Source: Acidimicrobiales bacterium
Lineage (GTDB): Bacteria; Actinomycetota; Acidimicrobiia; Acidimicrobiales; JAHWLA01
DNA length: 64,000 bases
NCBI GenBank assembly: GCA_036260075.1
Contig: DATAAM010000066.1
Location: 4,226 to 68,225, forward strand
Reading direction: 5' to 3'
In this document: one piece after another, positions 8,914 to 22,024 of the stretch
How positions within the stretch are numbered: the first letter of the stretch is position 1
Layout of the letters: every line of letters begins with the position of its first letter
Position numbers and translations under genes: made by a program
The notes under the pieces: generated by a model
What the model was told of the DNA's origin: nothing
The model's input: the letters and a program-made list of their open reading frames with translations, nothing else
Databases searched by the model: none

Positions 8914-10949
<2,036 letters not shown>

Positions 10950-10953
<4 letters not shown>

Positions 10954-12749
10954 AGCTCGGTCTCGGCCTCCACGACCACGCCTTCGCGCAGGTCGACCAC
11001 GTGCGGCTCGGCCTTCTGCAGCACGGCGATGATGTCCTCGCCGATGAGCTCGTCGTGCTCGAGCAGCGCGTCGCGCAGGGCCTCAACCAGGTGCCGGTTC
11101 TCCGACAGCATCTTGGTGACCTCGTCCTTCGCCGCCGCGAGGATCGACTCCACCGCGTCGCGGGTGCGGTCGTCGGAGAGCACCTTGGTGACGACGTTGG
11201 CCCCGGGCGGCCCCGCCGCCGCCTCCAGCGAGATGAGCGAGCCGGCCATGCCGAAGCTGCCGACCATCTGGGCCGCTGCCGACGTGGCCGCCTGGAGGTC
11301 GCCGCCGGGCCCGCTGCTCGACTCGCCGAAGAACAGCTCCTCGGCCACCATGCCACCGAAGGCGATCTGGATCAGCGACTCGATCTCCGACTTCGTGCGG
11401 GTGTAGCGCTCCTCCAGCTCGGAGTGCGCCAGGAGCCCGAGCGCTTGGCCCCGCTTGATGATCGAGAGGACCTCGAGCTTGCGGCCCTTGCCCACCAGGT
11501 AGGCGACGGTGGCATGGCCCGCCTCGTGGGTGGCGATCGTGCGCCGCTCGGCCTCGGTGTACTCCACCGGTTGCTTGAGGCCCAGCTCCTCGGTCATGCG
11601 GGCCTGCTGGATGTCGTCCCAGTTGAGGCGAGAGCCGCCGCGGCGCAGCGCCCACACCAGCGCTTCGTCGAGCAGGTGCTCGATCATCACCGGCGAGTAG
11701 CCGAACGTCATGGCGGCCAGCGTGTCGCGCGCCTCCGGCCGGTCGAGGTCGGCGTCGTGCGCCTTCTTGGCCAGGTAGTAGTCGATGATCTCCCGCCGTC
11801 CCGACCGGCTGGGCAGGTCGAAGTAGATCGAGCGGTCGAAGCGCCCCGGCCGCAGCAGCGCGGGGTCGAGGTCGTCCTTGCGGTTGGTGGCCCCGATGAC
11901 CAGGAGGTTGGCGGGCTCGGGGACCGGCTTGCGCAGCTGGCGGTGGGCGGGCAGCCAGCGGTTGAGCTGGTCGATGAACCACCCCTGGAAGCGCTGGCCG
12001 CCGGTGGGCTGGTCGAACGACTGGAGCTGGATGAGCAGCTCGTTCACCACGCCCGAGATGCCCTCGCGGCCGCCGCCCGATCCCATGCCTTGGCGGGCCG
12101 AGCCGATGGCGTCGATCTCCTCGATGAAGCCGACGGCGCCGCCCTCGCGGCGTGCCGCCGTGCGCATGGCCTTGAAGTAGTTGCGGATCTTGCGGTTGGT
12201 CTGGCCGTAGTACATCGACTGGAACGCCGACGACGACACGAAGAAGAACGGCACGCCCGCCTCGCGTGCCATGGCCTTGGCGAGGTAGGTCTTGCCGGTG
12301 CCGGGCGGCCCCTCGAAGAGGATGGCCCGCCGGGCCGTGCCGCCCATCCGCTCCTTGAACGTGCGGTGGGCGAGGAAGAGGTTGAGCGTCTTCACCACTT
12401 CCTCGACGACGACGGGCATGCCCTTCACGTCGTCGAAGGACGTCGTGAGCTCCGACGGCCGGTAGAGGACGTGGGGCGATCGGCCCGCCGCCAACAGCGG
12501 CACCAGCAGCACCGCGCCCAGCAGCACCACGAGGATCAGGGCGGGCATGAGCTCGACGGGCACGGGGTTGCGGATGCCGAACTTCACCGGGTTGCCTGTG
12601 GCGAAGCGCACCCACATCCACAGCGTGAGCGGCGTCAGGACGAAGGCCAACCGGGTCAAGCGCGACTGGCGGTTGCGCTCACGGGTGACGGCGACATCGG
12701 CCGCCGCGTCACGGAGCACTGCTGCCTGTCCGATCCGTTTGAGGTCCAT
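10950..12749 (-). CDS. FtsH-like AAA+ zinc metalloprotease paralogue
   Basis: Contains Walker A GPPGTGKT, Walker B IEEIDAIG, RPGRFDR and the M41 zinc motif HEAGHA. The ATG at 12749 is preceded by GGAG with 7-nt spacing. The track ORF extends to 13985, but that N-terminal part is Arg/Gly-rich shadow. Confidence 0.85.
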
Positions 12750-14093: not shown

Positions 14094-14414
14094 TCATATG
14101 AGCATCCCGGCCACGGCCAGCGCCAACAGCGCGACGTTGCGAGCCACCGTCCGCCCGGTCACCGGCCGCCGCGAGAGCCGGCCGAAGCAGCCGCACGGCT
14201 CCCGGTCGCCCGCCCGCACCCGCCGCGCCACCACCACGGTGAAGGCGGCCAGCAGGACGGCCGCCGCGCCCGCCGTCCACCGCCCGCCCACGCCGGTGAC
14301 GAGCAGGGCGCCCAGCACGACCTCGGTGACGGCCATCGCCGGGTGGGACCGGTCGGCCAGCTTGGCCACGCCCGCCACCAGGAGCACGACGCCGACGGCG
14401 AGGCGGGCGGGCAT
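14094..14414 (-). CDS. MauE/DoxX-like redox-associated membrane protein
   Basis: 106 aa and hydrophobic, with the CGCFG motif typical of the MauE family. It is shorter than usual. Confidence 0.65.
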   Translation of the reverse strand: MPARLAVGVVLLVAGVAKLADRSHPAMAVTEVVLGALLVTGVGGRWTAGAAAVLLAAFTVVVARRVRAGDREPCGCFGRLSRRPVTGRTVARNVALLALAVAGMLI

Positions 14415-16998: not shown

Positions 16999-17814
16999 GT
17001 GCACGAGGGGGAGGTGGTCGTCGGCGACCTGCGGGTCGCCTTCCTGGAGGAGGGACCCTCCGACGGTCCGCTGGCCGTGTGCCTGCACGGCTTCCCCGGC
17101 TGCGCGTGGACCTGGCGGTTCCTGCTCCCGGCGCTGGCCGAGGCGGGCTTCTGGGCCGTGGCGCCCTGGCTGCGCGGCTATGCGCCGACGGCTGTGCCCG
17201 CCGACGGCCGGTACGGCACGGCGGCCTTGGCGGCCGACGCCAACGGGCTGCACGAGGTGCTCGGCGGCGACGGGCGGGCCGTGCTGGTGGGCCACGACTG
17301 GGGCGCGGTCGCCGCCTACGGGGCTGCCACCACGGCGCCCGAGCGTTGGTCCCGCCTGGTGACGGCGGCGGTGCCCCGGCCGTCCACGTGGGGCACCCGC
17401 TTCCTCTCCTACGACCAGCTCCGGCGCAGCTGGTACATCTTCTTCTTCCAAAGCGGCTTCGCCGAGACGGCGGTGGCGGCCGACGACCTGGCCTTCGTCG
17501 ACCGGTTGTGGGCCGACTGGTCCCCCGGCTACGACGCCGCCGACGACCTGCCCCGGGTGAAGGAGGCGCTGCGGTCGCCCGAGCACCTGGCCGCCGCCGT
17601 CGGCTACTACCGGGCCATGTTCGACCCCGCCGCCGAGGGCGCGCCCGACGGGCCGTTCCCGCAGCCGTGGCTCTACCTGCACGGCGACGACGACGGCTGC
17701 CTGGGCGTCGAGCTGGCCCCGCCCGAGGCGGTGGTGCTGAAGGGCGCCGGCCACTTCCTCCACGTGGAGCAGCCGGAGGAGTTCAACCGGCGCGTGCTGG
17801 AGTTCCTCTCGTGA
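16999..17814 (+). CDS. alpha/beta hydrolase (epoxide-hydrolase-like)
   Basis: 271 aa with LHGFPGCAWTWRF and the nucleophile elbow VGHDWGA. The stop overlaps the next start (GTGA). Confidence 0.85.
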   Translation: MHEGEVVVGDLRVAFLEEGPSDGPLAVCLHGFPGCAWTWRFLLPALAEAGFWAVAPWLRGYAPTAVPADGRYGTAALAADANGLHEVLGGDGRAVLVGHDWGAVAAYGAATTAPERWSRLVTAAVPRPSTWGTRFLSYDQLRRSWYIFFFQSGFAETAVAADDLAFVDRLWADWSPGYDAADDLPRVKEALRSPEHLAAAVGYYRAMFDPAAEGAPDGPFPQPWLYLHGDDDGCLGVELAPPEAVVLKGAGHFLHVEQPEEFNRRVLEFLS

Positions 17815-19199
17815 CGGTGGCCCTGCCCGACGGCCTGGTGGCGGTGGTCAAGCACGACTGCCCCACGTGCCGCCTGGTGGCGCCGGTGCTGGCGTCCCTG
17901 GGCGCCCACCTGGTGTCGGAGGACACCGACGAGGGCCTGGAGACGTCCTTCCACTTGGGCGTGGAGGTGGTGCCCACGCTGCTGCGGGTGGAGGAGGGCT
18001 CGATCGTGGCCCGCACCGAGGGTTGGATGCGGGAGAAGTGGGAGGAGCTCACCGGGCAGTCGGGCCTCGCCCCCGAGCTGCCCGACTTCCGGCCCGGGTG
18101 CGGGTCCCGCACGCTCGACCCCAGCGTGGCCGAGGAGCTGGCCGTGCGCTTCGGCGGGTCGACTCTGCGGTCGCGGCGGGTGGAGATCGCGTCGCTCGAG
18201 GACGAGATGGAGGCCATGTTCGACCGGGGCTGGTCGGACGGCCTGCCGGTGGTGCCGCCCACCGAGGCGCGCGTGCTGCGGATGCTCGAGGGCACGTCAC
18301 GGCTGCCCGACGAGGTGGTGGCCGTGGTCCCGCCCGACCTGGTGGAGTGCACCGTCGAGAAGGTGGCGGTCAACGCCGTGCTGGCCGGGTGCAAGCCGGA
18401 GTACCTGCCGGTGGTGCTGGCCGCGGTGGAGGCCGCCTGCACCGAGGAGTTCAACGCCCACGGCTTGTTGTGCACCACCTGGTTCTCGGGGCCGGTGGTG
18501 GTGGTGAACGGGCCGATCGCCAAGGCCATCGGCATGAACAGCGGCTTCAACGCGCTGGGCCAGGGCAACCGGGCGAACGCCACCATCGGGCGGGCGTTGC
18601 AGTTGGTGATCCGCAACGTGGGCGGGGGGCGGCCGGGCGAGATCGACCGGGCCACCCTGGGTTCGCCGGGCAAGTACACGTTCTGCTTCGCCGAGGCCGA
18701 GGACGGCTCGCCGTTCGAGCCGCTGTCGGTGTCGCGGGGCCTGCGGGCCGGGACCTCGGCGGTCACGCTGTTCGCGGGCGGCGGCGTGCAGGGCGTGATC
18801 GACCAGCTGTCGCGCACGCCGGAGTCGTTGGCGCGCTCGCTGGCCCTGTCGTTGCGCACGGTGGCCCACGCCAAGCTGGCCATCGCCTTCGACGCCATGC
18901 TCGTGATCGCGCCCGAGCACGGCCGGGTGTTCAAGGAGGCGGGCTGGGACCGTGCTCGGCTGGTGGCCGAGCTGGAGGCGCTGTTGCAGCTTCCGGGCTC
19001 GGAGATCGTGCGGGGGGCGGGCGGCATCGCCGAGGGCGTGCCCGAGGTGTTCGCCGAGTCCACGCTGCCGAAGTTCCGCCCCGGCGGGCTCCTGTTGGTG
19101 CACGCGGGCGGCAGCGCCGGGCTGTTCTCCGGGATCATCGGCGGGTGGGCGAGCGGGAAGCTGGGCTCCGAGCCCGTCACCAGGGAGGTGCGTCCATGA
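17811..19199 (+). CDS. thioredoxin-fold (CPTC) N-terminal domain fused to a roughly 370-aa domain I cannot assign
   Basis: The GTG at 17811 gives VTVALPDGLVAVVKHDCPTCRLVAPVL... followed by GWSDGLPVVPPTEARVLRML... The sequence is clean GC3-rich coding. The stop overlaps the next ATG (ATGA). Confidence 0.75.
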   Translation: MTVALPDGLVAVVKHDCPTCRLVAPVLASLGAHLVSEDTDEGLETSFHLGVEVVPTLLRVEEGSIVARTEGWMREKWEELTGQSGLAPELPDFRPGCGSRTLDPSVAEELAVRFGGSTLRSRRVEIASLEDEMEAMFDRGWSDGLPVVPPTEARVLRMLEGTSRLPDEVVAVVPPDLVECTVEKVAVNAVLAGCKPEYLPVVLAAVEAACTEEFNAHGLLCTTWFSGPVVVVNGPIAKAIGMNSGFNALGQGNRANATIGRALQLVIRNVGGGRPGEIDRATLGSPGKYTFCFAEAEDGSPFEPLSVSRGLRAGTSAVTLFAGGGVQGVIDQLSRTPESLARSLALSLRTVAHAKLAIAFDAMLVIAPEHGRVFKEAGWDRARLVAELEALLQLPGSEIVRGAGGIAEGVPEVFAESTLPKFRPGGLLLVHAGGSAGLFSGIIGGWASGKLGSEPVTREVRP

Positions 19200-19708
19200 A
19201 GGTGCTCGACCCGACGGGGGAACGGTCGCCCGCCACCCGAGCCGCCGCTCCCCGGCCTGAGTCGCTCGACGGGCTGACTGTCGGGCTGCTCGACATCTCC
19301 AAGGCCCGGGGCGACGTGTTCCTCGACCGGCTGGAGGAGCGGCTTCGGGAGCGGGGGCTCACGACGGCCCGCTTCATGAAGCCCACGTTCACCAAGCCCG
19401 CGCCGGTCGACCTGCGCCACGAGATCGCCACACGATGCGACGTGGTGATCGAGGCACTGGCCGACTGAGGCTCGTGCACGTCGTGCAGTGTGCACGACAT
19501 CGTGGATCTCGAAGGGCGGGGCGTGCCGGGCGTGTTCGTGGCGTCCGACGAGTTCGCCGAGGCGGCCGAGACACAGTCACGCGCCCTCGGCTTCCGCCCG
19601 CAGTGGGTGCTCGTCCCCCACCCCATCCAGGACCGCACCGACGCCGAGGTGCAGGCCCTGGCAGACTCCGTGGTCGACGCGGTCCTCCGCGCCCTCTCTT
19701 CCCCCTGA
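19196..19708 (+). CDS. UGSC-motif selenoprotein; in-frame UGA (Sec) at 19466-19468
   Basis: Track ORFs ending at 19468 and starting at 19490 share one frame. Read-through gives ...EALAD-U-GSCTSCSVHDIVDLEG... A stem-loop begins 11 nt after the UGA. The ATG at 19196 is coupled to the upstream gene. Confidence 0.75.
19480..19498 (+). promoter_or_regulatory. candidate bacterial SECIS stem-loop for UGA 19466
   Basis: GTCGTGCA-GTG-TGCACGAC forms an 8-bp perfect stem. An alternative register pairs 19472-19479 with 19490-19497. The stem starts 11 nt 3' of the UGA and the apical region contains GU. Confidence 0.6.
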
Positions 19709-19716
19709 CCACCCCT

Positions 19717-19765
19717 GTTTTGGGCACGGTTACCCGCGCATACAGCGGCAAACCGTGCCCAAAAC
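19717..19765. repeat. 15-bp perfect inverted repeat (stem-loop) between the selenoprotein operon and the next gene
   Basis: GTTTTGGGCACGGTT (19717-19731) and AACCGTGCCCAAAAC (19751-19765) are separated by a 19-nt loop. There is no U-tract after the stem. Confidence 0.6.
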
Positions 19766-19781
19766 CGAGGAAGGAGGAGAG

Positions 19782-20678
19782 ATGAAGCAGATTGCACGCA
19801 GGGCACGGGTGCAGCACGGGCTCATCACCCGAGAGCAGGCGCTGGCCGCGGGCCTCGGCGAGGACGCGATCGACCGGTGGCTGGCCTGCGAGCGTTTGGA
19901 GCCTGTGCACAGCAGGGTCTATCGGGTGGCGGGAGTGCCGCAGACGTGGGAGCAGGACGTGATGGCGGCGGTGATGGCGGCCGACGGGGTGGCGTCGCAT
20001 CGTACGGCGGCGCGGCTGTGGGGCATCCACGACGCCGACGAGGTGGAGGTCACGGTGCCGCGCGGGCGGCGCTGCGAGGCGGTCGGCATGGTGACGCATC
20101 GGTCGCGTGACCTCACCCCGAAGCACGTCACGAGGCGGCTGGGCATCCCGGTGACGAACCCCATGCGCACCTTGGTCGACCTGGGCGCGGTGGTGCGGAG
20201 CGACGCCGCGGTGGCCGACGCGCTCGAACGGGCCGTCATCGCCCGCGTGTGCAGCGTCGTGGCAGTCGAGCGGGTGCTCGACGACGTCGCCCGGCGGGGC
20301 CGCCGCGGCGCGGGCGTCATCCGCCGCGTGCTCGACGACCGCGCCCTTGGGCGGGCCCGCCCCGACGGCCTGCTGGAGGCCCGCTTCGCCCGGGTGCTCC
20401 GGGAGCGCAACCTTCCACCGCCGGCCTTCCAGCACCCGGTCGGCCGCTACCGCGTCGACTTCGCCTACCCCGACCTCATGATCGCCATCGAGGTCGACGG
20501 CTTCGAGGTCCACTCCTCCCCCACGGCGATGCAAGCCGACGTCGAGCGCCAGAACCACCTCGTGGCCGCCGGCTGGACGGTCCTGCGCTTCACCTGGCGC
20601 GACGTCGTGCGCCGTCCCACATGGGTGGCGCGACAGGTGGAGCAGCTCCTACGGCAGCGCCAGCGCGCCGTCGCGTAG
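19782..20678 (+). CDS. DUF559 (Vsr-like endonuclease fold) protein with an AbiEi_4-like N-terminal domain
   Basis: A strong SD, AAGGAGGAGAG, precedes the ATG at 19782. The N-terminus reads GLITREQALAAGLGEDAIDRW...RVYRV. The C-terminus reads VDFAYPDLMIAIEVDGFEVH...GWTVLRFTW. Confidence 0.8.
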   Translation: MKQIARRARVQHGLITREQALAAGLGEDAIDRWLACERLEPVHSRVYRVAGVPQTWEQDVMAAVMAADGVASHRTAARLWGIHDADEVEVTVPRGRRCEAVGMVTHRSRDLTPKHVTRRLGIPVTNPMRTLVDLGAVVRSDAAVADALERAVIARVCSVVAVERVLDDVARRGRRGAGVIRRVLDDRALGRARPDGLLEARFARVLRERNLPPPAFQHPVGRYRVDFAYPDLMIAIEVDGFEVHSSPTAMQADVERQNHLVAAGWTVLRFTWRDVVRRPTWVARQVEQLLRQRQRAVA

Positions 20679-21481: not shown

Positions 21482-22024
21482 ATGGCGGGTTGGCTGCGCG
21501 TTGCCGTGCGGTTGCGGGGGAAGCTGCTGCGCGTCCCCACCACCTGGCGCATCCTCGCTCGGCGGCCGCAGGTGCTGGCGGGCCTGTTCGCCATGGAAGG
21601 CGGGCTGTTCGCCGCCCGCTCGGTGCCGCTCGACCTCAAGATGCTGGCCGAGATGCGCACCGCCTCCCTCATCGGCTGTCCCTGGTGACTCGACTTCACC
21701 TCTGCGGTCGGCAGAGCAGCGGGAATCCCGGAAGCGAAGATGCGAGCGCTCCACTGCTGGCGTGACAGCGAGGCGTTCACCCCGCTCGAACGCCTCGTGC
21801 TCGAGCTGGCCGACGCCATCACCGCCACGCCCGCCACACCGCGCCCCGACCTGCTCGACCGGCTGCGGGAGCACCTGAAGGAGCGACAGGTCGTCGAGCT
21901 GGCGATGACGATCGCATACGAGGGATTACGCGCCCGCTTCAACCGGGCCTTCGACGTGCAGCCGCAGCGCTACAGCGCCGAGGGTGCCTACTGCGTGCTG
22001 CCCTCCCACACCTCGTCGCCGTAG
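21482..22024 (+). CDS. carboxymuconolactone decarboxylase (AhpD-like) family selenoprotein; in-frame UGA (Sec) at 21686-21688
   Basis: Track ORFs 21482..21688 and 21740..22024 share one frame. Read-through gives ...MRTASLIGCPW-U-LDFTSAV...WRDSEAFTPLERLVLELADAIT... The family CxxC redox motif therefore reads C-P-W-U. Confidence 0.75.
21700..21716 (+). promoter_or_regulatory. candidate bacterial SECIS stem-loop for UGA 21686
   Basis: CTCTGC-GGTCG-GCAGAG forms a 6-bp stem with a GGUC-containing apical loop, as in E. coli fdhF. It starts 11 nt 3' of the UGA. Confidence 0.6.

Follow-up and report, generated by a model that had tools for sequence, protein, structure and literature searches.

An in-frame TGA in an Acidimicrobiales contig most likely encodes selenocysteine in a mis-split gene of the UGSC family

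In a 64,000-nucleotide stretch of the genome of an Acidimicrobiales bacterium (contig DATAAM010000066.1 of assembly GCA_036260075.1; hereafter the window), positions 19196–19708 of the + strand form one gene that belongs to a previously described family of selenoproteins, UGSC, and its in-frame TGA at 19466–19468 most likely encodes selenocysteine (Sec). An earlier note on this DNA had proposed that the two open reading frames (ORFs) on either side of this TGA are a single U-G-S-C gene. The proposal is the correct recognition of a family known since 2008, of which the window gene is a new, mis-split member. The gene comprises 170 codons and a stop codon, with the predicted Sec as codon 91, preceded by ...CDVVIEALAD and contained in the motif U-G-S-C-T-S-C. 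Its start codon, ATG 19196–19198, overlaps the TGA stop (19197–19199) of the upstream gene, here called the partner gene, as ATGA, and a Shine-Dalgarno-like GGGAGG can be read from the sequence at 19183–19188 (+ strand), 7 nt upstream of the ATG. As the earlier note held, the two ORFs share a frame: the 21 nt (seven codons) from TGA 19466 to GTG 19490 encode G-S-C-T-S-C-S, there is no further stop before the terminal TGA at 19706–19708, and no Shine-Dalgarno sequence precedes GTG 19490.

With Cys in place of the TGA, the 170-residue read-through product scores 157.7 bits against the NCBIfam model NF041046, ‘UGSC family (seleno)protein’ (cutoff 125), and 162.3 bits against Pfam PF24696 (cutoff 25; residues 2–168 of the product, positions 1–171 of 172 in the profile). 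Both matches span the TGA and thus bear out the reading of the two ORFs as one gene. Both halves of the gene carry a coding signal and are under purifying selection, with G+C contents at third codon positions (GC3) of 0.92 and 0.90; the earlier note had described the downstream segment as GC3-rich coding sequence up to the stop at 19706–19708. The U-G-S-C signature, which the earlier note had linked to a reported selenoprotein family, was described in 2008, when a UGSC-containing protein was counted with the selenoprotein families most abundant in the Global Ocean Sampling (GOS) metagenomes, with 255 Sec forms versus 21 Cys forms (Zhang & Gladyshev 2008, PMC2398784). A 2026 review places the family under NF041046 and gives its function as uncharacterised (PMC13188914).

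Conservation of the TGA was assessed in 84 related loci. Exact look-ups supplied four of them, and GTDB species genomes, for the most part metagenome-assembled genomes (MAGs) of Acidimicrobiia and other Actinomycetota, supplied the remaining 80. Together with the window these loci give 85 sequences; a Cys-form locus (L085) and a Trp-form locus (L086) are not among these. All 85 sequences have TGA at the Sec codon and continue in frame beyond it, and homologues that stop at ALAD and are followed by an independent gene are therefore not the case here. A search of 5.8 billion proteins returned 6,883 matches, the nearest of which (75–82% identity) are fragments of 93–100 residues, all ending ...EALAD. 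Since all database copies encountered are split at the TGA, gene callers make this error systematically. When 1.8 billion cluster representatives were searched with a profile, 2,560 relatives were recovered. Among 65 diverse full-length relatives, the residue aligned to the TGA is Cys in 56, within the motif D-C-G-S-C, and the homologues are colinear across the TGA, which is the correspondence that the earlier note had asked for. At the nucleotide level, the Cys-form locus L085 has TGT at the Sec position.

A bacterial SECIS-like (selenocysteine insertion sequence) hairpin is located at 19480–19498 (+ strand) and starts exactly 11 nt after the UGA, where the earlier note had placed it. It reads GTCGTGCA-GTG-TGCACGAC at the DNA level, and in the transcript an 8-bp stem, GUCGUGCA/UGCACGAC, encloses the loop GUG. 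Synonymous codon entropy over 83 distinct coding sequences is approximately 0 at codons +4 to +10, versus 1.3–2.2 bits at equally conserved residues elsewhere. Among the codons of this stretch, Thr is ACG in 78/79 sequences and Cys is TGC in 82/83, while Ser (AGT), Val (GTG) and Asp (GAC) are each encoded by the same codon in 83/83. The Ser codon is telling for the hairpin, because AGT is rare in GC-rich genomes and is kept throughout. Frequent changes are restricted to two, both at paired positions: TCG gives way to TCA and CAC to CAT, every TCA being accompanied by CAT. On a 48-column alignment, 97.5% of hairpin cells are paired; the pair 18–30 is G-C in 61 distinct sequences, A-U in seven and G-U in two, and is never broken. 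Synonymous variation is thus suppressed across the hairpin, with one compensatory pair. The Cys-form locus L085 has TCC-TGC-GCA-ATT-CAT at the hairpin site, and the stem cannot form there. An alternative register that the earlier note had also suggested, pairing 19472–19479 with 19490–19497, is present in the window sequence but is not conserved in relatives: the share of paired cells is only 73.6%, most sequences break the three outer pairs, and covariation is absent. We rejected this register.

Independent support for Sec decoding in this genome comes from a second predicted selenoprotein gene with its own hairpin, 2 kb downstream of the UGSC gene. This CMD/AhpD-like gene (21482–22024, + strand) starts at ATG 21482, has an in-frame TGA at 21686–21688 and a stop at 22022–22024, and carries the motif C-P-W-U in the context ...ASLIGCPW-TGA-LDFTSAVG, a CxxU motif. 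It was spotted by eye; when in-frame TGAs were sought under a strict GC3 criterion, only the UGSC site came up. The read-through product matches the Pfam CMD family PF02627 across the TGA with 34.4 bits (cutoff 23). Its match to NF053654, ‘YciW-related (seleno)protein’, has an E-value of 7e-26, and at 91 bits versus an equivalog cutoff of 310 it indicates a related subfamily rather than that exact family. A SECIS-like hairpin identified by folding, CUCUGC-GGUCG-GCAGAG at 21700–21716 (+ strand), starts 11 nt after the UGA of this gene. In a tblastn alignment of metagenomic homologues, the eight distinct closest sequences have the TGA and the hairpin, and the 38 distinct distant ones have TGC or TGT without the hairpin.

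The machinery for Sec decoding was found next to the UGSC and partner genes in several of the related loci. ARAGORN detected 13 tRNAs in all flanks, and five of them are tRNA-Sec genes that adjoin the operon. The one in L031 lies about 25 nt past the UGSC stop; those in L017, L032, L034 and L064 are upstream, at a distance of about 1.5 kb. In the same five loci tblastn located selD, selA and selB. The gene order in L017 (4362–10510) is selD, selA, selB, tRNA-Sec, partner, UGSC, and the encoded proteins score 336.8 bits for SelD (cutoff 125), 384.3 for SelA (267.9) and 315.3 for SelB (242.25). SelD and SelB of L031 are also above the curated cutoffs. The selA of L031 (10742–11957) is spread over two overlapping frames, 10742–11893 and 11148–11957, which points to either a frameshift or a misassembly in this MAG.

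The partner gene (17811–19199, + strand) encodes 462 residues with an N-terminal thioredoxin-like domain containing C-P-T-C and a C-terminal domain of about 320 residues of unassigned family. UGSC is immediately preceded by a partner homologue in 82 of 85 loci, as it is in the Cys-form locus L085, and the 4-nt overlap between the two genes is present in 35 of 69 loci. A database protein (P0271) is 100% identical to the partner over 462 residues, and NCBI names the homologues ‘thioredoxin family protein’. Searches of the partner against Pfam and NCBIfam gave no family above threshold, and weak thioredoxin similarity at the N-terminus. In its AlphaFold2 model (predicted local distance difference test score, pLDDT, of 82.9) the thioredoxin-like domain is joined by a flexible linker to a confidently modeled C-terminal domain. 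Six natural fusions (P0210, P0226, P0234, P0238, P0239 and P0262) consist of an N-terminal Cys-form UGSC domain followed by a counterpart of the C-terminal domain of the partner, which is 40–50% identical to partner residues ~123–380 (E-values from 1e-49 to 1e-67), so that in these proteins the UGSC domain replaces the thioredoxin-like domain. These fusions may correspond to the ‘UGSC/Unknown_1’ fusion of the 2008 paper. An alignment of partner sequences that includes three of the fusions shows Cys292 of this C-terminal domain to be invariant and Cys194 nearly so. A further apparent partner–UGSC fusion, P0123, proved to be a frameshifted gene call. That UGSC has an obligatory partner carrying a thioredoxin fusion may be a new point.

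The fold of the UGSC domain was modeled with AlphaFold2 from a natural Cys-form homologue (P0002; 66–68% identical), using 52 sequences. The model (pLDDT 93.7; predicted template modeling score, pTM, 0.87) has a five-strand beta-alpha repeat, in which the U/C residue is predicted at the end of strand 3, at the N-terminus of the following helix. Its fold matches in the PDB are generic flavodoxin-like folds with template modeling (TM) scores ≤ 0.5, and the 50 matches listed include no thioredoxin; a search of PDB sequences with UGSC found nothing. A likely thioredoxin-like fold was proposed for UGSC in 2008 (PMC2398784). Because the model is flavodoxin-like, that proposal is not supported, and we set aside a thioredoxin fold for the UGSC domain. 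A flavodoxin-like rather than a thioredoxin fold, as predicted by the model, may likewise be a new point.

At the sequence level, UGSC seems to have its Sec module in common with the GrdB/PrdB reductases, a remote homology that is possibly also new. When 52 diverse UGSC members were compared with models of these proteins, 32 matched TIGR01917 (GrdB), 19 TIGR01918, 19 GrdF, 10 GrdH and 9 PrdB, with a best E-value of 2.9e-10 for TIGR01917. Residues 77–168 of the window protein match positions 333–421 of the 431 in the GrdB profile, as does P0002 (~333–421), although at 16.2 bits versus a cutoff of 602.2 the window protein is not a member of the GrdB family. From the match coordinates, the window Sec falls near GrdB profile position 347. 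The Sec of GrdB lies at about residue 350 and may fall in the same alignment column as the Sec of UGSC. The Sec motif of GrdB is UxxCxxC (PMC13188914). Neither the genes called in L001, L002 and L085 nor the annotated neighbors at 13.5–26.3 kb of the window include GrdA, GrdE, GrdC or PrdA.

These observations are consistent with the following mechanism. A complex of SelB and Sec-tRNA(Sec), held on the mRNA hairpin at 19480–19498, would insert Sec at UGA 19466, a step for which the comparative evidence is strong, and translation would then proceed to the stop at 19706–19708. In the modeled flavodoxin-like alpha/beta domain, Sec would form a U-x-x-C redox center (here U-x-x-C-x-x-C). Gene order, gene fusions and remote homology suggest that UGSC acts with the product of the translationally coupled partner gene. 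The selenol might attack or reduce a substrate held by the C-terminal domain of the partner, a selenenyl-sulfide might then form with the Cys three residues on, and the thioredoxin-like domain of the partner might re-reduce it. By analogy, such a cycle would resemble that of the Sec module of GrdB/PrdB. Two results weigh against this mechanism: a fold search with the partner model matched only thioredoxins and no relative of the C-terminal domain, and the neighboring genes suggest no substrate for UGSC or its partner.

Several points also weigh against the assignment of Sec to the TGA. The 64-kb window, which makes up most of a 71.9-kb contig, contains no tRNA, and tblastn found no selA, selB or selD in it. 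Rfam returned no family at gathering thresholds over the whole window, nor any at E ≤ 10 over 19380–19620. The single-sequence fold of 60 nt has an energy of −21.6 kcal/mol versus a shuffle mean of −20.7 (z = −0.35), which is not significant; the significance of the hairpin thus comes only from the comparison with relatives. Within that comparison, covariation is limited to the one base pair 18–30, and the pair 16–32 is an A-A mismatch in 13 distinct sequences that have Thr for Ser, so that the core of the hairpin is the 6-bp upper stem. According to reviews, Sec insertion has never been demonstrated experimentally for the UGSC family (PMC13188914). Taking all of this together, we are highly confident that the best explanation as a whole is one UGSC gene, with Sec directed to UGA 19466 by SelB and the hairpin, whose product would do redox work with the partner.

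Other explanations of the TGA account for parts of these data. If the two ORFs encoded a split protein, translation would stop at UGA 19466 and restart at GTG 19490, the resulting chains of 90 and 72 residues would assemble, and the hairpin would serve termination–reinitiation. Gene callers do split every database copy at the TGA, and GTG 19490 is conserved, as the codon +8 for Val noted above. Yet the codons between the TGA and the GTG carry the family-defining motif, and G-S-C-T-S-C-S is kept as amino acids with synonymous change; the Ser at codon +2 is encoded by both TCN and AGY codons, which means that this stretch is translated and argues against a split. The Cys-form homologues are moreover single chains with Cys exactly at the TGA position, the GTG has no Shine-Dalgarno sequence, and tRNA-Sec and sel genes lie beside the operon in five genomes, all of which makes a split protein very unlikely. 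We give no more credence to a reading of the UGA as Trp, Cys or Gly, through near-cognate suppression or a reassigned code, and the chance that it is right is similarly slight. Some database homologues do have W, G or R at the Sec position at the protein level (R in P0003, G in P0009 and P0010), and L086, a 930-bp contig that encodes protein P0001, has a real TGG (Trp) codon there. The SECIS hairpin of L086 is nevertheless fully intact, which on so short a contig makes a sequencing error or a mutation that arose very recently more likely. TGA is also an ordinary stop in these genomes, where it closes 52 of 69 partner genes, 36 of 83 UGSC genes and, in the window, both, and therefore the genetic code is not reassigned; nor would suppression explain a hairpin at the canonical spacing or the adjacent sel clusters. 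That the gene is a pseudogene, or its TGA a misread TGC, could be entertained because the sequence rests on one metagenomic contig without resequencing. The same TGA recurs in 84 of 84 independent loci and is thus not a sequencing error, and with the high GC3 and purifying selection in both halves this possibility is effectively refuted, the least probable of all.

A further alternative accepts that Sec is inserted and holds that UGSC and its partner are no substrate reductase but handle selenium itself, for example through delivery of selenide to SelD or through storage, which would account for their place beside selD-selA-selB-selC. The operon directly abuts a full sel cluster in L017, L031, L032, L034 and L064, and, across the sampled relatives, it repeatedly emerges as a candidate client of the Sec machinery. 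Such adjacency occurs in only 5 of 84 loci, however, the Cys-form homologues retain the partner, and the remote homology of UGSC points to the catalytic Sec module of GrdB and PrdB; we therefore consider a role in selenium handling improbable, though less so than any of the alternatives above. We return to a redox function of the Sec-containing protein together with its partner, for which a more specific form can be put forward tentatively. In this form, UGSC and its partner would be an uncharacterised two-protein selenium-dependent reductase built on a free-standing Sec module of the Stickland-type GrdB/PrdB kind, in Actinomycetota, many of them Acidimicrobiia. It would be a principal client of the Sec machinery, clustered in some genomes with selD-selA-selB-selC, and the ~320-residue domain of the partner would represent a novel fold for substrate binding or catalysis. 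We regard this proposal in all its parts as possible, and on balance doubtful.

The genes around UGSC and its partner are in part shared with the related loci. An alpha/beta-hydrolase gene (16999–17814, + strand; Pfam Abhydrolase_1/6) precedes the partner gene, whose GTG start overlaps the hydrolase stop as GTGA (17811–17814). Of the 13 related loci that have this hydrolase gene, 12 place it directly before the partner, and the operon may begin with it. The hydrolase, partner and UGSC genes are thus chained by 4-nt start/stop overlaps from 16999 to 19708. The window and 15 related loci also share a gene for a MauE-like membrane protein (14094–14414, − strand, in the window), located 2–5 kb upstream of the operon. 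Eight nt past the UGSC stop, a strong stem-loop with a 15-bp outer stem occupies 19717–19765 (+ strand); the fold of 19700–19785 has an energy of −42.1 kcal/mol (z = −6.9), and the structure is probably a terminator or an insertion edge. It is followed by a DUF559/REase_MTES_1575-like gene with an AbiEi-like N-terminus (19782–20678), which stands between the UGSC gene and a gene for an HhH-GPD glycosylase in the window only. The downstream glycosylase gene is syntenic with 37 related loci, in which it follows UGSC without the DUF559/REase-like gene, and a MaoC-like hydratase gene is syntenic with 25. The presence of the DUF559/REase-like gene and the hairpin in the window alone suggests an insertion.

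For annotation, the fragments of 90 and 72 residues should be merged into one selenoprotein of 170 residues, and the pair of fragments at 21482–22024 should be joined likewise. The partner, the fusions, the homology to the GrdB/PrdB module and the flavodoxin-like model offer concrete hypotheses on the function of an abundant, uncharacterised selenoprotein.

Compared with known systems, the window gene shares with the UGSC family (NF041046/PF24696) a full-length match, the U-G-S-C motif and the correspondence of Sec and Cys forms, with Sec forms predominant in the GOS data and in the 84 loci, and it has no feature that distinguishes it from other members. The second selenoprotein gene resembles the CMD/AhpD-like CxxU selenoproteins (PF02627, TIGR01926, NF053654), which are established selenoprotein families (PMC13188914): its CxxU motif places Sec where Cys homologues have the second Cys of CxxC, and a hairpin follows its UGA.

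The earlier note had likened the UGSC hairpin to the apex of the fdhF SECIS of E. coli, in which the UGA is followed after 11 nt by an upper stem-loop with the apex UGCA-GGUC-UGCA. The likeness holds for the 11-nt spacing, for the four apical base pairs UGCA/UGCA and for the G and U in the loop, and fails for the loop itself, which in the window has three nucleotides, GUG, instead of GGUC and lacks the bulged U.

Another close comparison is with GrdB, GrdF, GrdH and PrdB (TIGR01917, TIGR01918, TIGR04483), with which UGSC appears to share homology in the C-terminal module and the spacing U-x-x-C-x-x-C (U-G-S-C-T-S-C in the window). UGSC differs from GrdB and PrdB in being a free-standing domain of 170 residues that lacks the ~330 N-terminal residues of GrdB. 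The hosts differ as well: GrdB and PrdB have been studied in amino-acid-fermenting clostridia, whereas UGSC is found mostly in MAGs of Actinomycetota, many of them Acidimicrobiia.

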